Below are positions 1,102-26,699 of a DNA stretch of 64,000 nt, piece after piece. The stretch is from the NCBI RefSeq assembly GCF_056746865.1, contig NZ_CM163382.1. The stretch is one strand, 5' to 3'. The notes beneath the pieces are model-generated. The model was given only the letters and a program-made list of their open reading frames with translations. It did no database searches and was not told where the DNA came from. Position numbers and translations under genes: made by a program. Within the stretch, counting starts at the first letter, position 1. Each line of letters opens with the position of its first letter.

Positions 1102-3360
1102 TTACTCTTCGCTATCACCGCTGCTGGCACGGCGAGGAGAGTCGATCTCAACACGATCGATACGCTGCAAACCGCGCATCAACGTACCGCGGCGTCCACG
1201 TTCGCCAGTGACTTTCTGTAACTCTTCCGGGCGCAGTTTAATTTTGCGTTTCCCAACATGAATGGTCAGCGTGCTTTGCGGCGGCAGAACGTACAATTGC
1301 GCCAGACCATCTTCTCCACGCGCGGCTTCTGCCGATGGAATGTTGATAATCTTGTTGCCTTTGCCCTTCGACAGCTGCGGCAGATCACTTACCGGGAACA
1401 TCAACATACGGCCTGCCTGAGTGATTGCCAGCAGCATATCGGAAGCATCTTCAATCACCACCGGCGGCATAACATGGGCATTTTCCGGTAAGGTGATCAA
1501 AGCCTTACCTGCACGGTTACGCGCCACCAGATCGTTAAAGGTGCAGACGAAACCGTAACCCGCATCGGAAGCCATCAGCAGTTTCTGATCGTCGCTTTCC
1601 ATCAGCATATGGTCAACGGTCGCCCCAGGCGGCAACGTTAATTTGCCGGTGAGCGGCTCGCCCTGACCACGCGCCGACGGCAGCGTAATCGGGTCAATGG
1701 CATAGCTACGACCGGTGGAATCAACAAACACTACCGGTTGGTTGCTCTTACCTTTCACCGCCGCTTTGAAGCTATCACCCGCTTTATAATTCAGGCCCGG
1801 CGCGTCGATATCATGGCCTTTAGCGCTGCGTACCCAGCCCATCTGCGACAGCACAATGGTGACAGGTTCAGACGGCAGCATGTCGTGCTCGCTCATCGCT
1901 TTCGCTTCTTCGCGTTCCTGCAACGGCGAACGACGATCGTCACCGTAGGCTTGCGCGTCTGCCTGCAGTTCTTTCTTCAGCAGGTTATTCATTTTACGCT
2001 CGGAAGCCAAAATGCCCTGCAACTGGTCGCGCTCTTTTTCCAGTTCACTCTGCTCACCGCGAATCTTCATCTCTTCCAGTTTGGCAAGATGACGCAGTTT
2101 CAGTTCGAGGATCGCTTCCGCCTGGGTTTCCGTAAGGCCAAACCGCGACATCAGCGCCGGTTTCGGTTCATCTTCATTACGAATGATCTCAATCACTTCG
2201 TCGATATTGAGAAACGCCACCAGCAAACCTTCGAGGATATGCAGGCGCTTGAGGACTTTCTCCAGACGATAGTTCAGTCGGCGGCGCACGGTATCGCGGC
2301 GGAACACCAGCCATTCGGAGAGGATTTCCAGCAGGTTTTTCACCGCCGGACGACCATCCAGACCGATCATATTAAGGTTAATACGATAGCTCTTTTCCAG
2401 ATCGGTGGTAGCGAAGAGGTGGTTCATCACCTGATCCATATCCACGCGGTTGGAACGCGGCACAATCACCAGGCGGGTCGGGTTCTCGTGGTCAGATTCA
2501 TCGCGCAGATCGTCAACCATCGGCAGCTTTTTGTTGCGCATTTGCGCAGCAATTTGCTCCAGTACGCGCGCACCTGAAACCTGATGCGGCAATGCGCTGA
2601 TAACCACCGCGCCATCTTCTTTCTTCCACACCGCGCGCATACGCACTGAACCACGTCCGTTCTCGTAGATTTTACGGATCTCGGCGCGCGAAGTGATAAT
2701 TTCCGCTTCAGTCGGATAATCCGGCCCCTGCACGATATCCAGCAGCTGATCGAGCGTGGTTTTCGGCTGGTCGATTAATGCGATTGCCGCCTGAGCCACT
2801 TCACGCAGGTTATGCGGTGGAATATCGGTCGCCATGCCGACGGCAATACCGGTGGTGCCGTTAAGCAAAATGTTTGGCAGACGGGCAGGTAGCATTTTCG
2901 GCTCCTGCAAAGTGCCGTCGAAGTTTGGCACCCAGTCAGCCGTCCCCTGCCCCAGCTCGCTCAATAGCAGCTCGGAATATTTCGACAACCGGGATTCGGT
3001 GTAACGCATTGCCGCGAACGATTTCGGATCGTCCGGCGCGCCCCAGTTCCCCTGACCATCAACCAGCGGATAACGGTAAGAGAACGGTTGCGCCATCAGG
3101 ACCATCGCTTCATAACAGGCGATATCGCCGTGCGGATGGTATTTACCCAGTACGTCACCGACGGTACGGGCCGATTTTTTAAATTTGGCGCTGGCATTCA
3201 GGCCCAGTTCAGACATCGCATACACAATGCGGCGCTGAACAGGTTTCAGACCATCACCAATAAACGGCAACGCACGGTCCATGATCACGTACATGGAGTA
3301 GTTTAAGTAGGCGTTTTCCGTAAATTCATGTAGCGCAAGGCGCTCTGCCATATCGCTCAT
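1102..3360 (-). CDS. parC: DNA topoisomerase IV subunit A
   Basis: 752 aa ORF, N-terminus [32 protein letters not shown] typical of ParC; correct length. Confidence 0.95.
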
Positions 3361-3497: not shown

Positions 3498-5105
3498 TCA
3501 ATGTGCCTTGATATACAACTCTTTGCTGTAGACATAATCCTGGGGATTATGCAGCGGAAAACCGCCAACGTAGGGTTTAAGCAGTTTGATTAACGGCTGA
3601 TAGTAGATAGGAATCAGCGGTGCCTGTTGGTTGATGATCACTTCTGCCTGCTGATACAACGCATTACGCTTTGTCGCATCAGTGATCTGCGTGGCCTGGT
3701 TTAGTAAGGCGTCATACTGCGCATTTTTCCAGTGACCGACGTTTTCTTCACTATCGCTTTTGAGCGTGTTCAGGAAGCTGGAAGCATCATTGTACGTCGC
3801 ATCCCACGACTGCCGAGACAGCATGAAATCACCGGCTCGTCGGGCATCAAGATAGGTTTTCCACTCCATTGTGCGCAGCGTCACCTGTGCACCCAGCCAT
3901 TTTTTCCATTCGGAAGACAACGCTATCGCGGTCTTTTCATGCAGATCGTACTTGTTGTAGAACAGCTCAAAGCGTAGCGGATGAGAGGCGTCGTATCCCG
4001 CCTGTTTCAGCAAGGCTTTTGCCATCGCGACGCGCTCACTCATTGGCTTTTGCAGTTCATCGAACGTCGTCGCGCTAAAGCCTTTTACCTCTGGCGGCGT
4101 CAGCGTGGTTGCGGGCGTTCTCAACCCCAGTACCTTTTGCGCAATAAGCTGTCGATCAACCGTAAGATATAGCGCCCGACGCACTCGCACATCGTTAAAT
4201 GGCGGTTTCTCAAGGTTGAAGTTGTAATATTCGCTGTTCAGACGCGGAATAATTCGTAGCTCGCCAGGCAGTGATTTTTCAATGGCGGGAATTTGCTGCG
4301 CCGGAACCCAGGTGAGATCGACCTCTCCCGCGCGATAGCGGTTATAGCCGGTGACCGAATTATCTAGCGCCAGATACTCAACCTGTTGCAATACTGTATG
4401 TTGCGCATCGCGGTACTTTGGATTTTTGCGTGCAGTAATCTTTTCGTTAACTACCCACTGATCAAGCACAAAGGCACCGTTGTAAACCATGTTCTCTGGC
4501 TTACTCCAGCTATCGCCATGTTTAGCGATGACATGATGAGGAACCGGGAACAGCGTCGGCCAGGCGAGCATCGTCGTGAACCAAGGAACCGGCTGCTCAA
4601 GCGTAACTTCAAGAGTACGATCATCCGTCGCTTTGACACCCAGCGATGTAACATCTGCTTTACCCGCAACAATAGCTGCGGCATTGTTAATGTGCGCCTG
4701 TGCCAGATAGCCAGCAAAAGGGCTTGCCGTTTTCGGGTCAACCGCGCGCTGCCAGCCGAGGACAAAATCCTCTGCCGTCAGAGGCTGACCGTCGGACCAC
4801 TGCAAACCGCTACGCAGATGGAAAATATAGCGCTTGCCGCCGTCCAGTATCTCCCAGCGTTCAGCCTGAGCGGGCTGCACCTGGCCTTCACCGTCCATCC
4901 ATACCAGACCTTCAAACAGATCCAGCACAATCTGCGCGGCAGTATTCTCCTCCACCTTTTGCGGGTCGAGCGTACCTGGGTCGCTATGATTGTTGTAACG
5001 AAAGACTTGTTGCGGGGCGAGCGGTGTGTTGGCGGGAACGTCAGCAGCGTAGAGAGGAGCCGCACTTACCAGGCTGACCAGCCATAATAAATTTCGCGTA
5101 TACAT
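3498..5105 (-). CDS. ygiS: Periplasmic solute-binding protein (ABC transporter family 5, oligopeptide-binding like)
   Basis: ORF 3498..5168 trimmed to internal Met preceding signal peptide MYTRNLLWLVSLVSAAPLYA; 535 aa like YgiS. Confidence 0.8.
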   Translation of the reverse strand: MYTRNLLWLVSLVSAAPLYAADVPANTPLAPQQVFRYNNHSDPGTLDPQKVEENTAAQIVLDLFEGLVWMDGEGQVQPAQAERWEILDGGKRYIFHLRSGLQWSDGQPLTAEDFVLGWQRAVDPKTASPFAGYLAQAHINNAAAIVAGKADVTSLGVKATDDRTLEVTLEQPVPWFTTMLAWPTLFPVPHHVIAKHGDSWSKPENMVYNGAFVLDQWVVNEKITARKNPKYRDAQHTVLQQVEYLALDNSVTGYNRYRAGEVDLTWVPAQQIPAIEKSLPGELRIIPRLNSEYYNFNLEKPPFNDVRVRRALYLTVDRQLIAQKVLGLRTPATTLTPPEVKGFSATTFDELQKPMSERVAMAKALLKQAGYDASHPLRFELFYNKYDLHEKTAIALSSEWKKWLGAQVTLRTMEWKTYLDARRAGDFMLSRQSWDATYNDASSFLNTLKSDSEENVGHWKNAQYDALLNQATQITDATKRNALYQQAEVIINQQAPLIPIYYQPLIKLLKPYVGGFPLHNPQDYVYSKELYIKAH

Positions 5106-5237
5106 GGTATTCCTTACCGGAGAAATTATAAGCCCAACAACAATACGCCTGTGGCATTGTTCGCTCAAACTTATCGCGAGTGATTTGGCTCACACTCCGG
5201 TAAAGAAAAAAGCGAGTTGCCCCCGCTTTTCCATTAA

Positions 5238-5633
5238 TTAACGGATTTCATTCAATAGTTCTGGATGCTTATCCAGAACACGTAAAAGTTTGATTGTGGA
5301 AGGATGAGGTTGGGCATTGCCTTTTTCGTAACGCGAAAACGCATTTACACCTCCCCCAAAAATTTCGCTTGCCTCTTTTTGGGTAAGAGAGAGCTTTTTT
5401 CGAACCTTCACTATAAATTCAGGTGCCACTGTTTCGGCATTCACCGAAGCCCGAAATGCCTTTACTTGCGCCATGAAAGCATCTGACTCTTCTTTATTCA
5501 TGATGCTCTCTTCGCAATGGACACAATATAAACCGTGGATACCTTTCAATACTGTTTTTCGTCCACGGAAGGTGTATGGAATATCTTTAATGCCAGAAAC
5601 CATTTCTCCCTGGTGGCAAACCGGACATTTCAT
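5238..5633 (-). CDS. mqsA: MqsA antitoxin (HTH-Xre, zinc-binding N-terminal domain)
   Basis: 131 aa; MKCPVCHQGEM...CVHCEE zinc motif plus C-terminal HTH; 1 bp downstream of mqsR. Confidence 0.9.
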   Translation of the reverse strand: MKCPVCHQGEMVSGIKDIPYTFRGRKTVLKGIHGLYCVHCEESIMNKEESDAFMAQVKAFRASVNAETVAPEFIVKVRKKLSLTQKEASEIFGGGVNAFSRYEKGNAQPHPSTIKLLRVLDKHPELLNEIR

Positions 5634-5634
5634 A

Positions 5635-5931
5635 TTACTTCTCCTTAAACGAGACGATCAGTACGTCATGAATTACCGTAATTTTAAGATAAACCTGGCC
5701 TGTAACAAGCCTGGGTCTGTAAACATCCTGCCAGATAGTATGATCAGAGTAGGTGGTCATGCTTTTATAAAAGTCGCTCTCTGATAATCCAATGATAACA
5801 TTACACATACCATCAAAATCCAAACCTAACTCATCTGCATTTAACAGGGCACTACGTGTTGTACGAACTTGCCCGGCATTGACAAGTTTTTTAACCTGAC
5901 TCAAACGTGTATGTGGTGTGCGTTTTTCCAT
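5635..5931 (-). CDS. mqsR: MqsR mRNA interferase toxin
   Basis: 98 aa; MEKRTPHTRLSQVKKLVNAGQVRTT matches MqsR; toxin-first operon with mqsA. Confidence 0.9.
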   Translation of the reverse strand: MEKRTPHTRLSQVKKLVNAGQVRTTRSALLNADELGLDFDGMCNVIIGLSESDFYKSMTTYSDHTIWQDVYRPRLVTGQVYLKITVIHDVLIVSFKEK

Positions 5932-5961
5932 AACCCCCGCCTCCCTGTTACTTTAGTTATA

Positions 5962-6670: not shown

Positions 6671-7063
6671 TTACGGATTTACTTTGCGGATCTGTTTGAC
6701 GTCAATTTCAACAGAATTCCAGTCTTTATCGACTTCACCCTGAATCTCAACCGTATCTTTCGGCGTCACCGTCACGCCGTTCCAGCGTTTGTGGTCGATA
6801 TCAACATTGATAGTACCGCTGGCATCTTTGAACACGTAGAGATCGTCAGAGATGCGTTCAACGATATTGCCGCGCAGGGTTACCCAGGTGTCGTCACGCA
6901 GGGATTTTGCGCTTTCTACAGTCGTTACGCTGCCGTTCGGCCCCTGGAATCCTCCGGCCTGACTTTGCGTTGCCGATGGGCCAGAAAAACCGCCCTGCTC
7001 TGCTGCCATCACCGGTGCGCTGCACAGGGCCATTACTGCGATTACTGCTGCGAATTTTTTCAT
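6671..7063 (-). CDS. ygiW: BOF/YgiW family periplasmic OB-fold stress protein
   Basis: ORF trimmed to MKKFAAVIAVMALCSAPVMA signal peptide; 130 aa; divergent from qseBC. Confidence 0.8.
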   Translation of the reverse strand: MKKFAAVIAVMALCSAPVMAAEQGGFSGPSATQSQAGGFQGPNGSVTTVESAKSLRDDTWVTLRGNIVERISDDLYVFKDASGTINVDIDHKRWNGVTVTPKDTVEIQGEVDKDWNSVEIDVKQIRKVNP

Positions 7064-7214
7064 GTTTATTACTCCCTTTAATGTCTGTTTCCGAGCATTT
7101 AACAAGATAGTCCTTAACAACTTCTTAAGGGAAAAAAATAAAATTTAGTGCTGTACAGAGCGCGTTACAACACGGTTTACTGGCAGCAAATACGGTTATC
7201 GCAGGGATGAAAAA

Positions 7215-7874
7215 ATGCGAATTTTACTGATAGAAGATGACATGCTGATTGGCGACGGCATCAAAACGGGCCTTAGTAAAATGGGTTTTAGCGTCGACTG
7301 GTTTACACAAGGTCGTCAGGGAAAAGAGGCGCTTTATAGCGCACCTTATGATGCGGTGATCCTGGATTTAACCTTACCAGGCATGGATGGTCGCGATATT
7401 TTGCGCGAATGGCGAGAAAAAGGTCAGCGTGAGCCGGTACTGATCCTGACCGCGCGCGATGCGCTGGCGGAACGTGTAGAAGGGCTGCGTCTGGGAGCTG
7501 ACGATTATCTGTGTAAACCTTTTGCGTTGATAGAAGTCGCCGCCAGGCTGGAAGCTCTGATGCGCCGAACCAACGGCCAGGCCAGCAACGAGCTGCGCCA
7601 CGGTAACGTCATGCTCGACCCCGGCAAACGTATCGCCACGCTGGCTGGCGAACCCTTAACACTGAAACCAAAAGAATTTGCCCTGCTGGAATTACTGATG
7701 CGTAACGCTGGTCGGGTACTGCCGCGCAAACTGATTGAAGAGAAACTGTATACCTGGGACGAAGAGGTCACCAGTAATGCCGTTGAAGTGCATGTGCATC
7801 ATCTGCGACGCAAACTCGGTAGTGATTTTATTCGTACCGTGCATGGTATTGGTTACACATTAGGTGAGAAATGA
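7215..7874 (+). CDS. qseB: Two-component response regulator QseB (OmpR family)
   Basis: 219 aa; receiver domain [16 protein letters not shown] and winged-helix C-terminus; overlaps qseC by 4 nt. Confidence 0.9.
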
Positions 7875-10537: not shown

Positions 10538-10852
10538 ATGCTTACCGTAATCGCAGAAATCCGTACTCGTCCTGGTCAACATCACCGTCAGGCGGTATTG
10601 GATCAGTTTGCTAAAATCGTTCCAACCGTACTGAAAGAAGAAGGTTGCCACGGCTATGCGCCAATGGTGGATTGCGCAGCTGGCGTGAGTTTCCAGTCTA
10701 TGGCACCGGATTCTATCGTGATGATTGAGCAGTGGGAAAGCATCGCGCATCTTGAAGCGCATCTGCAAACCCCGCACATGAAGGCGTATAGCGAAGCCGT
10801 AAAAGGTGACGTGCTGGAGATGAATATCCGTATTCTGCAGCCAGGGATTTAA
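10538..10852 (+). CDS. ygiN: Quinol monooxygenase YgiN (ABM domain)
   Basis: 104 aa; MLTVIAEIRTRPGQHHRQAVLDQF. Confidence 0.9.
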   Translation: MLTVIAEIRTRPGQHHRQAVLDQFAKIVPTVLKEEGCHGYAPMVDCAAGVSFQSMAPDSIVMIEQWESIAHLEAHLQTPHMKAYSEAVKGDVLEMNIRILQPGI

Positions 10853-10863
10853 TCCTGCCTTGT

Positions 10864-10895
10864 TTGCCCGGCCATCCTGACCGGGCAATGTTCTT
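10864..10895. terminator. Stem-loop between convergent ygiN and parE
   Basis: TTGCCCGG-loop-CCGGGCAA inverted repeat followed by T-rich tract. Confidence 0.5.
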
Positions 10896-10899
10896 TCCT

Positions 10900-12795
<1,896 letters not shown>

Positions 12796-16992: not shown

Positions 16993-17139
16993 TGACGACG
17001 ACGGGGCTTCGGCCCCGTCTAAACGTAAGGCAACGTAAAGATACGGGTTATCTGCCGCATTCTTCCCCCTTCTCGCTTCAATTTCGACCAGCCATCCTCT
17101 ATTCTGATGGGTATTTACCACTGGTCCCGGAAGACAAAA

Positions 17140-17811
17140 ATGAAACGGACAAAATCCATACGCCACGCATCGTTCCGCAAAAACTGGAGCGCACGCCATC
17201 TGACACCAGTCGCTCTCGCGGTTGCCACTGTTTTTATGCTGGCTGGCTGTGAAAAGAGTGATGAAACAGTGTCTCTCTATCAAAATGCTGACGACTGTTC
17301 AGCTGCAAACCCAGGCAAAAGCGCCGAATGTACCACCGCGTACAACAATGCGCTGAAAGAAGCCGAACGTACTGCGCCGAAATACGCCACCCGTGAAGAC
17401 TGTGTTGCTGAATTTGGTGAAGGTCAGTGCCAGCAGGCACCAGCCCAGGCTGGTATGGCACCAGAAAACCAGGCGCAGGCCCAGCAATCCAGCGGAAGTT
17501 TCTGGATGCCGCTGATGGCCGGTTACATGATGGGGCGTCTGATGGGCGGCGGCGCGGGATTTGCACAGCAGCCGCTGTTCTCCTCGAAAAACCCAGCCAG
17601 CCCGGCTTACGGTAAATATACCGACGCGACGGGTAAAAACTATGGCGCAGCGCAGCCAGGCCGCACCATGACCGTACCGAAGACGGCAATGGCACCAAAA
17701 CCGGCGACCACCACCACCGTTACTCGTGGCGGTTTTGGTGAATCTGTTGCCAAACAAAGCACTATGCAGCGTAGCGCAACCGGCACCTCTTCTCGTTCAA
17801 TGGGTGGCTGA
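17140..17811 (+). CDS. ygiB: DUF1190 lipoprotein-like protein YgiB
   Basis: ORF trimmed to [16 protein letters not shown]...; 223 aa; downstream of tolC. Confidence 0.8.
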
Positions 17812-17816
17812 TACCG

Positions 17817-18977
17817 ATGGAAAGAGTCAGTATTACCGAGCGCCCGGACTGGCGCGAAAAAGCCCACGAATACGGTTTCAATTTTCACACCATGTACGGC
17901 GAACCGTACTGGTGTGAAGATGCTTACTACAAGTTGACCCTCGCCCAGGTTGAAAAGCTGGAAGAAGTCACCGCCGAACTGCACCAGATGTGCCTGAAAG
18001 TGGTTGAAAAAGTGATCGCCAGCGATGAGCTGATGACCAAATTCCGCATTCCAAAACACACCTGGAGTTTTGTGCGCCAGTCATGGCTGACTCACCAGCC
18101 ATCGCTTTATTCGCGTCTTGATCTGGCGTGGGATGGTACTGGCGAACCTAAACTTCTGGAAAATAACGCCGATACGCCAACGTCACTGTATGAAGCCGCA
18201 TTCTTTCAGTGGATCTGGCTGGAAGATCAGCTTAACGCCGGTAACCTGCCGGAAGGCAGCGACCAGTTTAACAGTCTGCAAGAAAAGCTAATCGATCGCT
18301 TTGTCGAGTTGCGTGAACAGTATGGCTTCCAGTTGCTGCATCTCACCTGCTGTCGCGACACGGTGGAAGATCGCGGAACCATTCAGTATTTGCAGGACTG
18401 CGCGACAGAAGCTGAAATCGCTACTGAATTCCTCTACATCGACGATATCGGTTTAGGCGAAAAAGGTCAGTTCACGGATTTACAAGATCAGGTGATTTCT
18501 AACCTGTTCAAGCTGTATCCGTGGGAATTTATGCTGCGTGAGATGTTCTCCACCAAGCTGGAGGATGCAGGCGTACGCTGGCTGGAACCGGCGTGGAAGA
18601 GCATTATCTCCAACAAAGCGCTTCTACCGCTGTTGTGGGAGATGTTCCCGAATCACCCGAACCTGCTGCCCGCTTATTTTGCGGAAGATGATCATCCGCA
18701 AATGGAAAAATATGTGGTTAAACCGATCTTCTCCCGTGAAGGCGCAAACGTGTCGATCATTGAGAACGGCAAAACCATTGAAGCAGCGGAAGGTCCGTAT
18801 GGCGAAGAAGGGATGATTGTTCAGCAATTCCACCCGTTACCGAAATTCGGCGACAGCTATATGCTGATTGGTAGCTGGCTGGTTAACGATCAACCTGCCG
18901 GAATTGGCATTCGTGAAGACCGTGCATTGATCACCCAGGATATGTCTCGGTTTTATCCGCATATTTTTGTTGAGTAA
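17817..18977 (+). CDS. ygiC: Glutathionylspermidine synthase-like ATP-grasp protein YgiC
   Basis: 386 aa; [32 protein letters not shown]. Confidence 0.85.
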
Positions 18978-19461
18978 TACTGTTCAATATTGCCCCGTTT
19001 ACCGGGGCAATTTATTATACTTCGCAAATCATCACCCCCATCTATATATAATCAATCACATCCATCACTTTTATTTAACATTAATTCCTAATTTAATATT
19101 AAATCGTCATATGTAAGCGATACTGTAATTAAATTAATCAATAAAATCACTTGGTAACCTATTGTTTTATGAGTTTATTTATATCCAACACCGCATCAAA
19201 AATAGATTTAATAATTAAAAAACAATGTCGCTGGGATCACACTACACAATATTGAATATTGTTATTGATATATTGCCCACCTAGTATCGACCAAAAGAAA
19301 ATATTTGTTACAGAGAAATACAAAAATTCTAAAACCAGTAAAAAATATTCATAACGATTATTATTAATACATTTTAATTCACAAAACAAATTTATTAGCA
19401 CCACCTCAACAGTCGATATTCATCATTATTATATATTTGCGTTATATAAGGAGATATATCC

Positions 19462-21258
19462 ATGTTTGATAAATATAGAAAAACTCTGGTAGCCGGAGCT
19501 GTGGCGATAACTCTGGGTTTGTCAGCACCGGGGGTGATGGCAGCAGGTTTTAAACCCGCACCACCTGCCGGGCAACTGGGTGCAGTCATTGTCGATCCCT
19601 ACGGCAATGCACCACTGACCGCTTTGGTTGACTTAGATAGCCATGTCATTTCTGATGTCAAAGTTACCGTCCATGGGAAGGGCGAAAAAGGCGTAGAAAT
19701 CAGCTATCCCGTGGGTCAGGAATCACTAAAAACTTATGATGGTGTACCGATTTTTGGTCTTTATCAGAAATTTGCTAACAAAGTGACCGTTGAGTGGAAA
19801 GAAAACGGCAAGGTCATGAAAGATGATTATGTGGTGCACACTTCGGCCATCGTCAATAATTACATGGATAACCGCTCTATCTCCGATTTACAACAGACCA
19901 AAGTTATTAAAGTCGCACCGGGTTTTGAAGATCGCCTCTATCTGGTTAATACCCACACCTTTACCGCCCAAGGTTCCGATCTCCACTGGCATGGTGAGAA
20001 AGATAAAAATGCCGGTATCCTTGATGCGGGTCCGGCAACCGGCGCACTACCTTTTGATATCGCGCCCTTTACTTTCATTGTCGATACCGAAGGTGAATAC
20101 CGCTGGTGGCTGGATCAAGACACTTTCTACGATGGTCGTGACCGCGATATCAACAAGCGTGGTTATCTGATGGGTATCCGCGAAACACCACGCGGCACCT
20201 TTACCGCTGTACAAGGTCAGCACTGGTACGAGTTCGACATGATGGGGCAGGTGCTCGAAGATCACAAACTACCGCGCGGATTTGCTGACGCCACTCATGA
20301 GTCCATTGAGACGCCTAATGGCACAGTATTGTTGCGCGTAGGTAAGAGCAATTACCGTCGCGATGACGGCGTACACGTCACCACCATTCGTGACCATATC
20401 CTCGAAGTCGATAAATCTGGTCGCGTTGTCGATGTATGGGATCTGACCAAGATCCTCGATCCGAAACGCGATGCACTGCTCGGCGCGCTGGATGCAGGTG
20501 CAGTTTGCGTTAACGTTGACCTTGCCCATGCAGGACAACAGGCAAAACTGGAACCGGATACACCGTTCGGCGACGCGCTGGGTGTAGGGCCAGGTCGTAA
20601 CTGGGCGCACGTTAACTCAATCGCCTATGACGCAAAAGATGACTCAATCATCCTCTCCTCTCGCCACCAGGGTGTTGTGAAAATTGGTCGTGATAAGCAA
20701 GTGAAATGGATCCTTGCGCCCTCTAAAGGTTGGGAAAAACCGCTGGCCAGCAAGCTGCTGAAACCGGTTGATGCTAACGGTAAGCCAATTACCTGTAACG
20801 AAAATGGCCTGTGCGAAAACTCAGACTTCGACTTTACCTACACCCAGCATACCGCCTGGATTTCCAGCAAAGGAACGCTCACCATTTTTGATAATGGCGA
20901 TGGGCGTCATCTGGAACAACCTGCCTTACCAACCATGAAATACTCCCGCTTTGTGGAATATAAGATTGATGAGAAGAAAGGCACCGTTCAGCAAGTGTGG
21001 GAATACGGTAAAGAACGTGGCTACGATTTCTATAGCCCGATTACCTCCATCATTGAATATCAAGCCGACCGTAACACCATGTTTGGCTTCGGTGGTTCTA
21101 TTCATTTGTTCGATGTCGGGCAGCCAACCGTCGGTAAGTTGAACGAAATCGATTACAAAACCAAAGAAGTGAAAGTGGAAATCGACGTGCTGTCAGATAA
21201 ACCCAATCAGACTCACTATCGTGCACTGTTAGTCCGTCCACAACAGATGTTCAAATAA
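19462..21258 (+). CDS. assT: Arylsulfate sulfotransferase (periplasmic, signal peptide)
   Basis: 598 aa; signal peptide MFDKYRKTLVAGAVAITLGLSAPGVMA; family recognised from translation; followed by dedicated DsbL/DsbI genes. Confidence 0.85.
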   Translation: MFDKYRKTLVAGAVAITLGLSAPGVMAAGFKPAPPAGQLGAVIVDPYGNAPLTALVDLDSHVISDVKVTVHGKGEKGVEISYPVGQESLKTYDGVPIFGLYQKFANKVTVEWKENGKVMKDDYVVHTSAIVNNYMDNRSISDLQQTKVIKVAPGFEDRLYLVNTHTFTAQGSDLHWHGEKDKNAGILDAGPATGALPFDIAPFTFIVDTEGEYRWWLDQDTFYDGRDRDINKRGYLMGIRETPRGTFTAVQGQHWYEFDMMGQVLEDHKLPRGFADATHESIETPNGTVLLRVGKSNYRRDDGVHVTTIRDHILEVDKSGRVVDVWDLTKILDPKRDALLGALDAGAVCVNVDLAHAGQQAKLEPDTPFGDALGVGPGRNWAHVNSIAYDAKDDSIILSSRHQGVVKIGRDKQVKWILAPSKGWEKPLASKLLKPVDANGKPITCNENGLCENSDFDFTYTQHTAWISSKGTLTIFDNGDGRHLEQPALPTMKYSRFVEYKIDEKKGTVQQVWEYGKERGYDFYSPITSIIEYQADRNTMFGFGGSIHLFDVGQPTVGKLNEIDYKTKEVKVEIDVLSDKPNQTHYRALLVRPQQMFK

Positions 21259-21275
21259 TTAAGAAGGGAATAAAA

Positions 21276-21944
21276 ATGTCGAAATTAGGGATCTCATCAC
21301 TATTTAAAACCATACTGCTTACCGCAGCTTTGGCTGTTTCATTTACCGCTTCTGCATTTACCGAAGGCACGGATTACATGGTTCTGGAAAAACCTATTCC
21401 GAATGCCGACAAAACGCTGATTAAGGTATTTAGCTACGCCTGCCCGTTCTGTTACAAGTACGACAAAGCGGTTACCGGTCCGGTATCGGAAAAAGTGAAA
21501 GATATCGTTGCTTTTACTCCATTCCATCTGGAAACAAAAGGTGAATACGGCAAACAAGCAAGCGAAGTCTTTGCGGTCTTGATCAATAAAGATAAAGCAG
21601 CAGGTATTTCATTATTTGATGCTAACTCTCAGTTTAAGAAAGCCAAGTTTGCTTATTACGCGGCTTATCATGACAAAAAAGAACGCTGGTCTGATGGTAA
21701 AGATCCGGCTGCCTTTATCAAAACCGGACTGGACGCCGCAGGTATGAGTCAGGCCGATTTTGAAGCCGCGCTGAAAGAGCCTGCAGTTCAGGAAACGCTG
21801 GAAAAATGGAAAGCCTCTTATGAAGTTGCAAAAATCCAGGGCGTTCCGGCGTATGTCGTCAATGGTAAATACCTGATCTACACCAAGAGTATTAAATCTA
21901 TTGACTCAATGGCAGACCTTATCCGCGAGTTAGCAAGCAAATAA
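21276..21944 (+). CDS. dsbL: Periplasmic thiol:disulfide oxidoreductase DsbL (DsbA paralogue)
   Basis: 222 aa; signal peptide and CPFC active-site motif ([14 protein letters not shown]). Confidence 0.8.
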
Positions 21945-21958
21945 CAGGGAAACAGGCT

Positions 21959-22630
21959 ATGGGTATTAAGGGAATGTGGAAAGACCTTCGCACTTCACCG
22001 GTGGACACGCTGGTAAGATGGCAAGAACAACGTTTTTTGTGGTTGTTAATGGCCATTGCGATGGGCGCGTTAATTATCCTGGCGCACTCTTTCTTCCAGA
22101 TCTATCTCTACATGGCACCCTGTGAGCAATGTGTATACATTCGCTACGCCATGTTTGTGATGGTTATTGGAGGATTGGTTGCAGCGATCAACCCAAAGAA
22201 CATCATCCTAAAGCTAATTGGCTGCGTGATGGCATTTTACGGCAGCATTTTGGGACTGAAGTTTTCGCTCAAACTGAACGATATCCACCATGCAGTACAT
22301 AATCCGGATCCCGATTCACTGTTTGGCGTACAGGGTTGCTCTACCGATCCAACTTTTCCCTTTAACCTGCCGCTGGCACAGTGGGCACCAAATTGGTTCA
22401 AGCCTACCGGGGATTGTGGCTATGACGCACCAATCGTTCCTGATGGCGTCACACTGAGCAGCACGCAACAGTGGTTTGTGGAAATGTATCAGCAATCTGA
22501 AGGCTGGTATCTGCTACCACCATGGCATTTTATGAATATGGCTCAGGCTTGTATGCTGGCTTTTGGTATGTGTCTGGTGCTGCTGGTCATTATGAGTGGC
22601 GCATGGGCGCTTAAAATCATCAGAGGCTAA
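21959..22630 (+). CDS. dsbI: Membrane disulfide oxidoreductase DsbI (DsbB paralogue)
   Basis: 223 aa polytopic membrane protein with paired cysteines (CEQC) immediately downstream of dsbL. Confidence 0.8.
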
Positions 22631-22675
22631 CTCAGCAACACCCGAAGCCAGTCGTTCTGGCTTCGGGTTCTTTTA

Positions 22676-23464
22676 TTAACCTATCTGCACCGACAGCATA
22701 CTTAAACTGCCCATTTCTATACCATCGACCGGAATGGTAATTGGCTCCTGCCCATCCCACGCACCTAAGACATACAACAACGGCAGATAGTGCTCTGGCG
22801 TTGGATTCGATAACGCGCCACCTTCATGGTCGAGATAATTCACCAGAGGATGCTGCTCTACCGGCCCTTGCCACGTCAGATTCGCTTTCACATACTCATT
22901 AAACGACATCGCCCACGGATACGGTGAACTATCACCGTGCCACTTCACCGTACGCAGGTTATGCACCACGTTACCGCTGGCGACCAACATTATTCCTTCA
23001 TCCCGCAGCGCTGCCAGTTTGCGCCCCATTTCGAAATGCCAGGCGGCAGGTTTGCTACTGTCGATACTCAACTGCACCATCGGGATATCCGCTTGCGGAT
23101 ACATCTTAATCAGCACGCCCCACGAGCCGTGGTCAAAGCCCCAGGCTTCTTTATCCAGCGTCACCGGGACCGGCGCTAACAGCTCAACCAGATGCTGTGC
23201 CAGCGCAGGCGAACCCGGAGCAGGATAATGCGTGTCGTACAGCGCCTGCGGGAAGCCACCAAAGTCATGAATCGTGGGCGGCGTCTCCATCGCGGTCACT
23301 CCTGTTCCACGGGTAAACCAGTGAGCCGAAACCACCACAATCGCTTGCGGGCGTGGCAATGTCATCCCCAACTTCTGCCAGCTGCGGGTATACAAATTAT
23401 CTTCCAGCACGTTCATCGGACTACCGTGACCTAAAAACAATGCTGGCATACGTGTTGAAGACAT
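22676..23464 (-). CDS. ygiD: 4,5-DOPA dioxygenase extradiol-like protein YgiD
   Basis: ORF 22676..23491; start taken at second Met (MSSTRMPALFLGHGSP); alternative start at 23491. Confidence 0.8.
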   Translation of the reverse strand: MSSTRMPALFLGHGSPMNVLEDNLYTRSWQKLGMTLPRPQAIVVVSAHWFTRGTGVTAMETPPTIHDFGGFPQALYDTHYPAPGSPALAQHLVELLAPVPVTLDKEAWGFDHGSWGVLIKMYPQADIPMVQLSIDSSKPAAWHFEMGRKLAALRDEGIMLVASGNVVHNLRTVKWHGDSSPYPWAMSFNEYVKANLTWQGPVEQHPLVNYLDHEGGALSNPTPEHYLPLLYVLGAWDGQEPITIPVDGIEMGSLSMLSVQIG

Positions 23465-23606
23465 GATGATATCCTTAACTAAAGGTGTCATTTTGATATC
23501 CTCACAATACGCTTGTTCGGCGGAGTAAGAACCCGGATAACAATGATGATGATCATCAGTTATTTTGACGATCTGCCTGAAGGTGAAGATTTATAAGGAG
23601 TTGTCG

Positions 23607-24380
23607 ATGTCAGTACCTCTCATTCTGACCATACTGGCGGGGGCAGCCACGTTTATTGGCGCGTTTCTCGGCGTTCTCGGGCAAAAACCCTCGAACCGCT
23701 TACTGGCGTTTTCGCTAGGATTTGCGGCGGGGATCATGTTGCTCATCTCATTAATGGAAATGCTTCCTGCCGCACTAGCAGCTGAAGGAATGTCGCCTGT
23801 GTTGGGTTATGGAATGTTTATCTTCGGTCTGCTTGGCTATTTTGGCCTGGACCGCATGTTGCCACATGCGCATCCGCAGGATTTAATGCAAAAATCGGTG
23901 CAGCCGTTGCCAAAATCGATCAAGCGCACAGCCATTCTGCTCACTCTCGGCATCAGTCTGCATAACTTCCCGGAAGGGATTGCCACCTTTGTCACTGCGA
24001 GCAGCAACCTGGAGCTGGGCTTTGGCATCGCACTGGCCGTTGCGTTACACAATATTCCTGAAGGTCTGGCGGTTGCAGGCCCGGTTTACGCGGCAACGGG
24101 GTCTAAACGCACCGCGATTCTGTGGGCGGGGATTTCTGGACTGGCAGAAATTCTTGGTGGTGTGCTGGCGTGGTTAATCCTCGGTAGCATGATTTCCCCG
24201 GTGGTCATGGCGGCAATCATGGCGGCGGTTGCAGGAATTATGGTGGCGCTCTCGGTTGATGAATTAATGCCGCTCGCCAAAGAGATTGACCCTAATAATA
24301 ACCCCAGCTATGGCGTACTATGTGGAATGTCAGTGATGGGATTCAGTTTAGTGCTGCTACAAACGGCGGGAATTGGTTAA
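23607..24380 (+). CDS. zupT: Zinc transporter ZupT (ZIP family)
   Basis: ORF trimmed to [18 protein letters not shown] with upstream TAAGGAG RBS; 257 aa. Confidence 0.9.
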
Positions 24381-24389
24381 AAACAACAT

Positions 24390-24420
24390 CAGAAGTTGTC
24401 CAGCGCATGGACAACTTCTG
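24390..24420. terminator. Stem-loop between convergent zupT and small membrane ORF
   Basis: Inverted repeat CAGAAGTTGTCCA-GCGCA-TGGACAACTTCTG. Confidence 0.5.
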
Positions 24421-24437
24421 CCAGCTTCACGAAAGCC

Positions 24438-24608
24438 TTATTCTACCTTTTCGGCTGTCTCTTCTCTCGTACTGTTTAAGTATTTGTTCCGCGCTTCAAG
24501 CAGTGCGTCTCTGTCCTGGCGAAACGCCCGACAATAACGTTTCAAATGCAGGAAATAACCCACCACAACCAGAGCAATCAATACAATCCAGTACCAGGCG
24601 ATAAACAT
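24438..24608 (-). CDS. Small single-TM membrane protein (56 aa)
   Basis: ATG at 24608 preceded by AAGGGTAAAAGG RBS; MFIAWYWIVLIALVVVGYFL hydrophobic helix then charged tail; track ORF begins at an upstream TTG. Confidence 0.45.
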   Translation of the reverse strand: MFIAWYWIVLIALVVVGYFLHLKRYCRAFRQDRDALLEARNKYLNSTREETAEKVE

Positions 24609-24869
24609 CCTTTTACCCTTAATATTTAACAATACTAAACATTTAGCGCATAAATTTCACATATCCTTTTTCGGATATATTCATATGGTCGCATAATAAC
24701 GGAACAATTATATGATTTTGATCATAATGAAAAAGAATGCCTGATATTAATGAAATTTTCTCATAGAAAGAGAAGCGGAATTAACATCTTGCATAGCAGG
24801 GAAAAATAAAAACCGAAGCCTGCTACAACTTCGGTTTCTTGATTAAGGCAGTAAATTAAGCAGCGGTTT

Positions 24870-25523
24870 TCAGCTGGCTTTACGCTCATGTGCCTGACGA
24901 TAAGCCACCAGGTCTTCAATAGTCACGAGCGCCATATTGTGTTTATTGGCAAACTCAATGCACTCTGGTGCACGCGCCATCGTGCCATCGTCATTAGTCA
25001 GCTCACACAGCACACCAGCCGGTTTAAAGCCTGCCAGCGTCATCAGATCAATAGTCGCTTCAGTATGGCCGCCACGCGTCAGTACACCACCAGCCTGAGC
25101 GCGAAGTGGGAAAACGTGGCCCGGGCGATTCAGATCAGAAGGTTTTGCGTCATCGGCAATCGCTGCGCGAACGGTCGTAATACGGTCAGCGGCAGAAACA
25201 CCGGTAGTCACACCTTCAGCCGCTTCAATGGTCACGGTAAAACCGGTGCCATAGGCGCTGGTGTTATTTTCTACCATCATTGGCAGATCAAGTTGTTTAC
25301 GGCGATCTTCAGTAATGCACAGGCAAACAATACCGCTACCGTGGCGAATGGTCAGCGCCATCTGCTCAACGGTCATGGTTTCTGCCGGGAAGATCATATC
25401 GCCTTCGTTTTCACGGTCTTCATCATCAAGCACCATTACACCGCGTCCTTCACGCAGCGCAGCCAGTGCATTTTCAACACGTTCGAAAGGCGTACCAAAA
25501 GAGGAAAGTAGCGTCTGATTCAT
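24870..25523 (-). CDS. ribB: 3,4-dihydroxy-2-butanone 4-phosphate synthase
   Basis: 217 aa; [45 protein letters not shown]. Confidence 0.95.
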
Positions 25524-25569
25524 GGTAAAAAAACCTCACTAAAATTATGGTTACCAGAATCAGGGCAGT

Positions 25570-25790
25570 CTTAGGAGTGGCGGCATATAGCCAAAATAAC
25601 GTGAGCGGGTCCATGCCCGACAGAATCGTTACTCTCTCCCATCCGGACTCTAACCGTCGGCCCCGGAATTACACCGGATCTGCTGTCCTTTGAGTTCGCA
25701 CCCAAAGCGCTCGCGGGCTTTCAACTGAGTTGATTTACCGCCGGTGGGGAATTTCGCCCCGCCCTGAGAATAAGCGGATTCACTATAACG
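25570..25790 (-). ncRNA. sroG: FMN riboswitch (RFN element, sroG) in ribB 5' leader
   Basis: Minus-strand sequence contains conserved aptamer blocks CAGATCCGGTGTAATTCCGGGGCCGACGGTTAGAGTCCGGATGGGAGAGAGTAACG upstream of ribB. Confidence 0.8.
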
Positions 25791-25896
25791 CTAATGATTA
25801 GCGCCAGCAACGCATAGCTTCACATAATTCTGGTTTATGACTTACCCTTATCGCACTACAATGGCACTCAACACCTATCAGTACAGGGAAACTACA

Positions 25897-26196
25897 ATGA
25901 TTGACCCGAAAAAAATTGAGCAAATCGCTCGCCAGGTTCACGAATCAATGCCTAAAGGAATCAGGGAGTTCGGGGAAGATGTGGAGAAAAAAATCCGCCA
26001 AACCCTACAAGCGCAACTGACGCGTCTCGATCTGGTGAGCCGCGAAGAATTCGACGTACAGACGCAAGTCCTGTTACGGACTCGTGAGAAACTGGCATTA
26101 CTGGAGCAGCGCATCAGTGAACTGGAAGCGCGCAATAATTCGGTAGCAGATCTTCAATCTCCTCCGGCTATCCCGCCTATTGATAAAGCAGAATAA
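25897..26196 (+). CDS. ubiK: Ubiquinone biosynthesis accessory factor UbiK (YqiC)
   Basis: ORF trimmed to [21 protein letters not shown]; coiled-coil small protein. Confidence 0.85.
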
Positions 26197-26204
26197 AGCA
26201 ACAC

Positions 26205-26226
26205 AAAAACGGGCCAGACGGCCCGT
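26205..26226. terminator. Stem-loop between convergent ubiK and glgS
   Basis: CGGGCC-AGAC-GGCCCG flanked by A5 / T-rich on minus strand. Confidence 0.5.
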
Positions 26227-26230
26227 AATA

Positions 26231-26431
26231 TCAGTGTTCTAATTCAAGTTCTCTGGTTTGCATCATCTGTTGGCAATACCAGGCATAACGTGCGCAAAAC
26301 CAGGTTCTATGTTCTTCATCCATGTTACCAGTAACGGCCAGAATATCGACCGGGCGACCTTCTGCGTGCATTCTGGCAAAACTACGCGCCAGGAAATCGA
26401 AATTATTTAAAGAATTAAGACTATGATCCAT
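26231..26431 (-). CDS. glgS: Surface composition regulator GlgS
   Basis: 66 aa; [33 protein letters not shown]. Confidence 0.9.
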
Positions 26432-26699
26432 AAGCACATCCTCCGGTTATCGCATACCTTTTAAGGCCATATGCTTTTTCTGATTTCAGTATTCCCCAAT
26501 CAGTGTAGTGCCTTTAAACATAACGTGCGTAAATATATTGTCCCCGATCACACTTTTTAGTGAAAAATAAAAAACCATATTAAAAGACTTTCTCTTCCAG
26601 AACTTCTCTAACATGTGTTATTATTAACAAAGATAAATGTAAGCAAGGAAACTATCCTAAAGTAAATATTGCGTCACTAAATGGACATTGGAGTGACAT

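Follow-up and report, generated by a model that had tools for sequence, protein, structure and literature searches.

The interval between ygiC and ygiD in the window, a 64,000-nucleotide stretch of DNA, in all probability carries the already known and well-studied tricistronic assT-dsbL-dsbI operon. We also consider it probable that this cassette has long belonged to the tolC-ribB neighbourhood and has stood at the ygiC/ygiD site since the Escherichia ancestor. In the ORF list, ygiC, assT, dsbL and dsbI all lie on the plus strand and are followed by convergent ygiD on the minus strand, and the ygiC-ygiD interval holds a 484-bp intergenic region and three intact, co-oriented genes. For annotation purposes, the region can confidently be labelled assT-dsbL-dsbI. 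The main features of the locus are as follows.

17817-18977, plus strand: ygiC (ORF list)
18978-19461, plus strand: regulatory intergenic region upstream of assT (484 bp, 27% GC)
18989-19011, plus strand: ygiC intrinsic terminator hairpin (terminator scan), ATTGCCCCG-loop-CGGGGCAAT, then a T-run
19448-19453, plus strand: Shine-Dalgarno AAGGAG, 8 nt ahead of the assT ATG
19462-21258, plus strand: assT, periplasmic PAPS-independent aryl-sulfate sulfotransferase precursor, 598 aa (ORF list, PDB, Pfam)
21276-21944, plus strand: dsbL, periplasmic DsbA-like dithiol oxidase, 222 aa (ORF list, PDB match)
21959-22630, plus strand: dsbI, inner-membrane DsbB paralogue, 223 aa (ORF list, NF003304)
22640-22668, plus strand: strong intrinsic terminator after dsbI (terminator scan and inverted repeat), 12-bp stem with 8 G-C pairs, then a T-run
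22676-23491, minus strand: ygiD (ORF list), stop codon at 22676

An initial annotation had placed the cassette at 18978-22660. Its start, the first base past the ygiC stop, is correct, but its end is 15 nt short. Strain-specific DNA continues to 22675, one base ahead of the ygiD stop codon, and position 22660 falls within the terminator hairpin that follows dsbI. Two terminators bracket the genes. Other Escherichia retain the stem of the ygiC terminator around loops that differ, and the changed stem bases of MOD1-EC7003 can still pair; this hairpin insulates the cassette from ygiC transcription. The terminator after dsbI, which is also conserved in other Escherichia, closes the operon immediately ahead of the ygiD stop codon. 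Gaps of 17 nt (assT-dsbL) and 14 nt (dsbL-dsbI) separate the three genes, and the terminator scan found no convincing internal terminator between them. The shared strand, short gaps and bracketing terminators are consistent with one transcription unit, and co-transcription of assT-dsbL-dsbI as a tricistronic operon has been reported for CFT073 (PMC7810732).

Matches to PDB entries 3ELQ and 3C7M, to Pfam and to NF003304 bear out the gene names given in the initial annotation, and the three ORFs are, judged from their sequences, real genes and not chance ORFs. Throughout its 571 aa, mature AssT (residues 28-598) shows 100% identity to PDB 3ELQ/3ETS/3ETT, with 3ELQ being the crystallised CFT073 AssT. 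Since an NCBIfam search of AssT returned no family, its identity rests on Pfam and PDB. The two Pfam domains are the arylsulfotransferase beta-propeller domain PF05935 (residues 146-587, E = 7e-136) and the N-terminal Ig-like domain PF17425 (residues 42-127, E = 2.6e-28). Three features of the gene relate to export and catalysis.

19462-19542, plus strand: assT signal peptide, codons 1-27; the crystallised mature chain begins at precursor residue 28, after ...GVMA
20794-20796 and 20812-20814, plus strand: disulfide Cys418 and Cys424 in mature numbering (precursor Cys445 and Cys451)
20848-20850, plus strand: catalytic His436 (mature numbering)

The published account of ASST lists His436 as catalytic and His252, His356, Asn358, Arg374 and Thr501 as sulfuryl-binding (PMC13426309). 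All six residues, together with Cys418 and Cys424, are present at the expected mature positions. AssT thus has the domains, catalytic residues, signal peptide and disulfide cysteines of an ASST of PF05935 cluster I. The AAGGAG ahead of the gene is invariant across Enterobacteriaceae loci (Escherichia, Citrobacter, Salmonella, Intestinirhabdus), with one change in Pseudocitrobacter.

The motifs of the two Dsb proteins were located as follows.

dsbL codons 1-27, plus strand: signal peptide
21441-21452, plus strand: dsbL CPFC active site, codons 56-59
22121-22132, plus strand: dsbI CEQC, codons 55-58

Over residues 28-222, DsbL matches PDB 3C7M at 193 of 195 positions (422.8 bits, 2 substitutions). 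It combines a DsbA-type thioredoxin fold with the CPFC motif, found at residues 56-59 as the initial annotation had read it, and its gene lies directly downstream of assT. Against the DsbA equivalog it scored 78 bits, under the cut-off of 279, and for this reason we regard DsbL as a distinct paralogue. DsbI scored 418.8 bits against NCBIfam NF003304 (DsbI), above the cut-off of 212, and 83 bits against DsbB, for which the cut-off is 157. Its second cysteine pair is Cys127 and Cys153. Alignment with DsbB structures brought the CxxC and the two loop cysteines of DsbI into register, giving it the four essential cysteines of the DsbB type.

The steps of the mechanism that we propose come from published work on the CFT073 proteins (PMC13426309, PMC7810732, PMC6067686). 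A signal peptide of 27 residues would direct newly made AssT to the periplasm, where its folding would require the Cys418-Cys424 disulfide. The very oxidising DsbA paralogue DsbL (CPFC) would put in this bond, and the membrane DsbB paralogue DsbI (CEQC, Cys127, Cys153) would re-oxidise reduced DsbL. As a homodimeric beta-propeller, AssT would then, with no need for PAPS, take sulfuryl groups from phenolic sulfate esters and pass them to phenolic acceptors by a ping-pong mechanism via a sulfo-His436 intermediate. For ASST, the role of His436, ping-pong kinetics, a single essential disulfide and co-expression with DsbL/DsbI have been described (PMC13426309), as have the tricistronic operon and the specificity of DsbL/DsbI (PMC7810732). 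Sequence identity with the characterised CFT073 enzyme leads us to expect MUS/pNPS-to-phenol sulfuryl transfer in this strain. AssT acts on phenolic compounds, dietary polyphenols and drug sulfates among them, and the sulfotransferase system is already in use as a read-out for DsbA-inhibitor screens.

The main role of DsbL and DsbI might instead be that of a second, general pathway for the oxidative folding of virulence factors, with AssT as one client among several. Plasmid-borne DsbLI partly restores motility in a CFT073 dsbAB dsbLI double mutant, and DsbA/DsbB are able to fold AssT too (PMC6067686, PMC7810732). However, the motility complementation requires over-expression, and published accounts describe DsbL as specific for ASST, with an electropositive surface and a groove that is truncated (PMC6067686, PMC13426309). 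The three genes are also linked in every Enterobacterales context that we saw, and AssT adjoins DsbA-like genes in Campylobacter. A general role as the main function is, in our judgement, unlikely.

The initial annotation gave the cassette as absent from K-12 at this position, and this was upheld: in MG1655 the stop codons of ygiC and ygiD are 37 bp apart, and that 37 bp holds none of the three genes. The comparison with CFT073 that it proposed placed all three genes at the same ygiC-ygiD site with the same 484-bp spacing. Its description of the cassette as inserted found no support. According to that explanation, the cassette would be a recent, horizontally inserted genomic islet in extraintestinal pathogenic lineages. 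Its absence from K-12 and from 72% of complete genomes fits such an origin, as does a GC content below that of the flanks (27% upstream, about 42-44% in dsbL). The unit also occurs in at least three chromosomal contexts across Enterobacterales and so has moved over long time-scales; the peptide-pattern scan misses some known carriers, Salmonella enterica subsp. enterica and Klebsiella being absent from its matches.

Most other observations speak against recent insertion. There is no integrase or transposase among the ORFs, a search of positions 10000-32000 found no tRNA, and a repeat search found no direct or inverted repeat pairing the two borders, so that the integrase or transposase, attachment site and flanking repeats of a mobile island or islet are all lacking here. 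The identical ygiC/ygiD junction is found in four non-coli Escherichia lineages, namely E. albertii, E. whittamii, SCPM-O-B-8794 and MOD1-EC7003 (cryptic Escherichia), and in Pseudocitrobacter. Synonymous divergence of the cassette is comparable with that of ygiC, ygiD and zupT, and the more similar an outgroup is in the flanks, the more similar it is in the cassette. In comparison with E. coli alleles of B2/F, dS was 0.06-0.31 for the cassette and 0.04-0.16 for the flanks; against the cryptic lineages, both were 0.33-0.48, with dsbL higher against MOD1-EC7003. Strains outside the extraintestinal pathogens carry the cassette as well. On balance, a recent islet seems quite improbable to us.

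The empty sites give a less direct view of the history. One homologous spacer of 37 bp is common to the four that we read (K-12, O26 and two other strains), and every sampled empty site was equal in length. Nothing in the K-12 spacer matches the edges of the cassette, meaning that there is no edge-derived scar, and the spacer resembles a REP-like hairpin between adjacent ygiC and ygiD in Salmonella and Citrobacter. Over its first 200 nt, ygiD shows 6-8% divergence between K-12 and cassette-bearing strains, which suggests that the empty allele may itself be old or imported by recombination; ygiC is not more divergent near the junction. Since the junction evidence is ambiguous, the polarity call rests on the outgroups, here E. 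albertii, E. whittamii, SCPM-O-B-8794, MOD1-EC7003 and Pseudocitrobacter. The shared junction, the flank-like dS and the missing mobility hallmarks make it most likely that the cassette is ancestral in Escherichia and the K-12-type state derived. The K-12-type allele would then reflect replacement of the cassette by a 37-bp REP-like hairpin. A record named 'O157:H7 str. EC10' (4.79 Mb, urine) was set aside as evidence for phylogroup E; its junction is identical to that of the O26 strain.

A further alternative is that the operon is a silent, decaying remnant without current function in this strain. The CFT073 operon is not expressed under standard conditions and is dispensable for bladder colonisation, and it is up-regulated in the urine of infected mice (PMC7810732). 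Disrupted cassettes do occur elsewhere, with ISVsa5 in CE0007a, IS1A in RIVM_C037794 and a 17-bp dsbI deletion in KP63. In the window, by contrast, all three ORFs are full length, and mature AssT is unchanged relative to CFT073 in spite of 38 nucleotide differences. An upstream island and the ribosome-binding site are conserved across genera. Values of dN/dS were 0.014-0.07 for the cassette over dS up to about 0.5, and 0.016-0.05 for assT. Decay of the operon in this strain therefore appears very unlikely, and the cassette seems to be kept by purifying selection. Viewing the locus as an ancient, maintained Escherichia trait and not as a pathogen acquisition affects how it should be read as a 'virulence-associated' marker.

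Among E. coli, the cassette was present in 1508 of 5426 complete genomes, and the remainder (72%) had a clean empty site. The earlier suggestion that its presence says something about the lineage of the source strain therefore survives. The proposed association with extraintestinal pathogenic E. coli does not, as carriers include strains that are non-pathogenic or otherwise outside that pathotype: Nissle (EcN), ABU 83972, the environmental strain SMS-3-5, enteroaggregative 042, and bovine, gull and poultry isolates. We take the named carrier strains to belong to phylogroups B2, D and F. The association of the cassette is with phylogeny, not pathotype. Carrying it sets this strain apart from the K-12 branch (phylogroups A/B1). 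The haplotype of the region upstream of assT narrows the placement further, to a group resembling ST69; the source strain probably belongs to such an ST69-like lineage and not to ST73.

In the 484 bp upstream of assT, identity to the B2/F allele is only about 78% and the alignment opens 12 gaps, whereas the neighbouring genes are 94-98% identical. Among the 1508 carrier genomes, upstream identity to this strain was bimodal: 261 were at 95% or above, 1247 at 60-80%, and none in between. There are thus two E. coli assT upstream haplotypes about 22% apart, and this strain has the minority one, for which identity is higher with E. whittamii (88%) than with other E. coli (78%). Sliding-window differences between the haplotypes were concentrated in two hypervariable blocks, 19017-19210 and 19311-19409. 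Three features lie between these blocks.

19217-19289, plus strand: conserved island, aligning across Escherichia, Pseudocitrobacter, Citrobacter and Salmonella
19246-19262: 17-bp palindrome ACAATATTgAATATTGT, overlapping the -35 (inverted-repeat search)
19259-19264 (-35, TTGTTA) and 19282-19287 (-10, TAGTAT), plus strand: candidate sigma-70 promoter, 17-nt spacer

Besides the ribosome-binding region, the island is the only upstream block that can be aligned across genera, whichever site the cassette occupies. We infer the promoter from this cross-genus conservation only; it agrees with consensus at 8 of 12 positions, which is below the scan threshold. The sigma-70 scan gave fewer matches than shuffled sequence and none that was convincing upstream of assT. 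Transcription probably begins at the promoter in the conserved island, near 19259-19287. An Rfam scan of positions 17000-26500 at a permissive E-value found no match in the cassette or the upstream region, the sole convincing match in that range being the ribB FMN riboswitch. Small intergenic ORFs were rejected as genes, as all are AT-rich and disrupted by indels between haplotypes.

AT-rich regions such as this one (27% GC) are typically silenced by H-NS. The upstream region may be under H-NS silencing with relief by LeuO, by analogy with Salmonella Typhi, in which assT is repressed by H-NS and activated by LeuO (summarised in PMC4264507). Silencing by H-NS would agree with reports that the CFT073 operon is silent when grown in the laboratory. 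It is conceivable, and we offer it tentatively, that the regulatory DNA was replaced horizontally, so that in ST69-like strains of phylogroup D the operon has another H-NS/LeuO set-point and another expression pattern. The upstream dimorphism is a new detail, while the biology of the operon itself is already established. A regulatory region that is dimorphic around a promoter-like, cross-genus island is a concrete target for expression studies.

The closest known system is the CFT073 assT(astA)-dsbL-dsbI operon, described by Grimshaw et al. 2008, Malojcic et al. 2008 and Totsika et al. 2009, as cited in later accounts (PMC13426309, PMC7810732). The ygiC-ygiD site, gene order and 484-bp, 17-nt and 14-nt spacings are alike, and mature AssT is identical. 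AssT differs only at A13T and P23S, both in the signal peptide; a third mismatch, at residue 172, is an ambiguous base in the CFT073 record, and none of the 38 nucleotide differences in assT changes an amino acid of the mature protein. DsbL differs at two residues (E183D, S211A; 94.8% nucleotide identity in dsbL), as does DsbI (F26L, I33V). The upstream 484 bp, at about 78% identity, differ by many small indels.

The Salmonella enterica cluster (Typhi, Typhimurium) has the same three genes in the same order (PMC4264507; PMC6067686) and shares the conserved upstream island and ribosome-binding region, outside of which the upstream region cannot be aligned. Protein identities to S. arizonae are 86% for AssT, 88% for DsbL and 85% for DsbI. 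The Salmonella cluster lies between zupT and ribB and not between ygiC and ygiD, which amounts to a swap of adjacent blocks. Campylobacter astA is likewise an AssT homologue linked to DsbL-like and DsbI-like genes (PMC4152235, PMC4460558), but the genes are ordered and oriented differently, DsbA is present in additional copies, and protein identities are far lower (for AssT, 40-47% in full-length matches and up to 55% in partial ones). This linkage suggests that the functional coupling of AssT with Dsb proteins is conserved across phyla. E. coli K-12 DsbA/DsbB is also a thioredoxin-fold CxxC oxidase with a membrane partner that has four essential cysteines. The motifs differ, with CPHC in K-12 DsbA and CPFC in DsbL, and CVLC in K-12 DsbB and CEQC in DsbI; unlike DsbA/DsbB, the DsbL/DsbI pair would be co-transcribed with one client enzyme.

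The open reading frames at this locus run nudF (minus strand), tolC, ygiB, ygiC, a 484-bp gap, assT, dsbL, dsbI, a 45-bp gap and ygiD (minus strand), followed by zupT, yqiD, ribB with its FMN riboswitch, ubiK and glgS. The ORF list and a terminator scan gave the following features.

17817-18977, plus strand, ygiC
18989-19011, hairpin terminator after ygiC
19462-21258, plus strand, assT (598 aa)
21276-21944, plus strand, dsbL (222 aa)
21959-22630, plus strand, dsbI (223 aa)
22640-22668, strong hairpin terminator after dsbI
22676-23491, minus strand, ygiD, convergent with the cassette

With small gaps between the cassette genes (17 nt for assT-dsbL, 14 nt for dsbL-dsbI) and terminators after ygiC and dsbI, the sequence fits the published tricistronic operon (PMC7810732). 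GC content is 27% in the 484-bp gap and about 50% on both sides. The initial annotation had placed the cassette at 18978-22660. Its start is exact; its end falls within the dsbI terminator hairpin, short of 22675, where the strain-specific DNA ends.

The gene assignments in that annotation, including a DsbL with CPFC, were confirmed by structure, domain and family matches and by motif position. Over residues 28-598, AssT shows 100% identity to the aryl-sulfate sulfotransferase crystallised from CFT073 (PDB 3ELQ, 3ETS, 3ETT), and the protein has the Pfam domains Arylsulfotrans and Arylsulfotran_N. All key residues listed in PMC13426309 are present (mature numbering: His436, His252, His356, Asn358, Arg374, Thr501 and the Cys418/Cys424 pair). 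DsbL differs from structure 3C7M at two residues and carries CPFC at residues 56-59. DsbI scored 418.8 bits against the NCBIfam DsbI equivalog (cut-off 212), and its CxxC (CEQC) and both loop cysteines are in register with DsbB structures.

The absence of the cassette from K-12 at this position, as given in that annotation, holds: in MG1655, 37 bp (GCCACGATACCGGATGGCACTCGCCATCCGGTAATTG) separate the ygiC and ygiD stop codons, and there is no trace of assT, dsbL or dsbI between the two genes, intact or otherwise. In CFT073 all three genes occupy this very site, with the same spacings.

Of 5426 complete E. coli genomes, 1508 contain the cassette, in each case with ≥80% of its length covered. The remaining genomes, with one exception, gave matches to the flanks alone, and in all non-carriers sampled ygiC, ygiD and zupT are adjacent, spanning ~2.9 kb. 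Named carriers include ATCC 25922, ST131, ABU 83972, Nissle (EcN), CFT073, SMS-3-5, 042 and ST69, which we take to belong to phylogroups B2, F and D; the site is empty in K-12, HS, a B strain and O26, presumably of phylogroups A and B1. The cassette is thus informative about lineage, as had been proposed. Its association with extraintestinal pathogens was overstated, since commensal, probiotic, environmental and enteroaggregative strains are among the carriers; it associates with phylogeny rather than pathotype.

Cassettes are occasionally disrupted in other genomes: by ISVsa5 in CE0007a (NZ_CP119011.1 and NZ_CP086623.1 are listed for disrupted cassettes), by IS1A in RIVM_C037794, and in KP63 by a 17-bp deletion that shortens dsbI (6974-7612 of its extracted locus, L006). 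Of the 1510 cassette-matching places, one falls in a record classified as plasmid, and chromosome NZ_CP114227.1 has two; these may reflect assembly artefacts or duplication.

The source strain is probably ST69-like, because many genomes, 'O15:H18 strain ST69' and 'UPEC69' among them, match a 25-kb stretch of the window with few or no differences. It is also probably fluoroquinolone-resistant at the level of topoisomerase IV, judging from parC (1102-3360, minus strand), where codon 80 encodes Ile, and parE (10900-12792, minus strand), where codon 458 encodes Ala. We read these as ParC S80I, which we take to be the classical quinolone-resistance substitution of a wild-type Ser, and ParE S458A, again assuming the wild-type residue. 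The neighbourhood of ubiK and glgS has several lineage-specific insertion or deletion sites. In the window glgS directly follows ubiK (25837-26437); in K-12 the two are separated by the ygiL-yqiGHI fimbrial operon, which IS2 interrupts, and in CFT073, ATCC 25922 and ST131 a four-gene fimbrial operon is found instead, between zupT/yqiD-like and ribB. In E. coli O26 RM10386, zupT is annotated as frameshifted (2130-2902 of extracted locus L063). Elsewhere, the window has the mqsR-mqsA toxin-antitoxin pair (~5200-5950), as in K-12. CFT073 has, between ygiZ/mdaB and between ygiN and parE, an Hcp gene and a siderophore receptor/ABC transporter cluster that are absent from the window (ygiN-parE junction, ~10800-10900).

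The initial annotation described the cassette as inserted between ygiC and ygiD, a direction that is probably wrong. A recent insertion into an empty site seems unlikely to us, since there are no integrase or transposase genes among the ORFs of the region, no tRNA near the cassette, and no direct or inverted repeats pairing its two borders. The same junction is also used in E. whittamii, Escherichia sp. MOD1-EC7003, SCPM-O-B-8794 (labelled E. coli, yet 6-9% divergent in flanking core genes) and Pseudocitrobacter, and likewise in E. albertii, where the ygiC and ygiD ends were seen. These outgroups, E. fergusonii not among them, come from scanning a single genome for each species, followed by tblastn with flanking proteins; the scan missed some known carriers. 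In Citrobacter, Salmonella arizonae and Intestinirhabdus (extracted loci L013-L018, L023) the cassette, together with its conserved upstream island, is at zupT|ribB, a swap of two adjacent blocks. In the Budviciaceae (Budvicia, Leminorella and Limnobaculum) it is flanked on one side by a divergent gene for a LysR-type regulator and on the other by sspB (in full, gltD and the regulator gene, the cassette, then sspB-sspA-rpsI), and Edwardsiella has the same regulator upstream.

Cassette divergence also resembles that of the flanks, which again speaks against recent arrival. Relative to B2/F alleles, dS was 0.06-0.31 in the cassette and 0.04-0.16 in the flanks; relative to cryptic Escherichia lineages, it was 0.34-0.48 (dsbL 1.6 against MOD1-EC7003) and 0.33-0.41. 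Cassette identity to each outgroup drops in step with the flanks. The strong purifying selection on the cassette genes (dN/dS 0.014-0.07, comparable with 0-0.10 in neighbouring core genes) argues for an operon in use.

At the empty sites of K-12, O26, 'O157 EC10' and U1 the 37-bp spacer is homologous throughout and carries the same hairpin, which favours a single event. With this spacer, the same-site outgroups, the flank-like divergence and the lack of mobility hallmarks, we think it reasonably probable that the cassette was ancestral at ygiC|ygiD in Escherichia and was later lost or replaced, leaving one derived cassette-less allele. Rather than a simple deletion, that allele may be a haplotype that is old or was imported, because the spacer is not composed of cassette edges, resembles the REP-like hairpin that Salmonella and Citrobacter have where ygiC and ygiD are adjacent, and adjoins a ygiD whose first 200 nt are 6-8% divergent in K-12 from carriers, with no such block in ygiC. 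Divergence is also locally raised in the 3' part of dsbL (21709-21909), with 10-15 differences per 100 nt from the B2 and F alleles, nearly all of them synonymous; this suggests a history of mosaic recombination within the cassette.

Identity to the B2 and F alleles is 94-98% in the coding genes but only ~78%, with 12 gap openings, in the 484-bp upstream region. Identity to this region is bimodal among carriers: 261 genomes at ≥95%, 1247 at 60-80% (76-78% in the sampled rows) and none between. Among themselves, B2 and F alleles share 99-100% identity in this region; the window type comes nearest to E. whittamii (88%). Replacement of promoter regions by divergent alleles has been described in E. 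coli, so this dimorphism is variation of a known kind. Most of the differences fall in 19017-19210 and 19311-19409. The island between them, 19217-19289, also aligns in Citrobacter, Salmonella and Pseudocitrobacter at either cassette site, so this stretch of the regulatory region, if not more of it, has travelled with the genes. We infer a possible promoter there, near 19259-19287.

19246-19262, 17-bp palindrome overlapping the possible -35
19259-19264, possible -35 (TTGTTA)
19282-19287, possible -10 (TAGTAT), 17-nt spacer from the -35

The S. Typhi cluster is reported to be under H-NS repression and LeuO activation (PMC4264507), and the CFT073 operon to be silent under standard culture conditions (PMC7810732); an AT-rich upstream region fits such regulation. 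In Limnobaculum, Leminorella, Budvicia and Edwardsiella (extracted loci L019-L021 and L024, ~4500-5630), the divergent LysR-type gene is the direct upstream neighbour of assT. Among NCBIfam models it matches BsrA (129 bits) and LeuO (103 bits) best, both below cut-off, which again points to LeuO-type control.

Because the proteins match characterised ones exactly or almost exactly, the published mechanism should apply (PMC13426309, PMC7810732, PMC6067686). AssT would be exported to the periplasm, where DsbL would form its Cys418-Cys424 disulfide and be re-oxidised by DsbI; the AssT homodimer would then move sulfuryl groups between phenolic compounds via sulfo-His436, without PAPS. DsbA/DsbB can partly replace DsbL/DsbI (PMC6067686, PMC7810732), and detoxification of phenolics has been proposed in the literature as a possible physiological role. 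An apparent difference from CFT073 at AssT residue 172 is an ambiguous base in the CFT073 record. The assT-dsbL-dsbI system is already known. At the protein level the window copy differs from that of CFT073 by A13T and P23S alone in AssT, both in the signal peptide (residues 1-27), by E183D and S211A in DsbL, and by F26L and I33V in DsbI.
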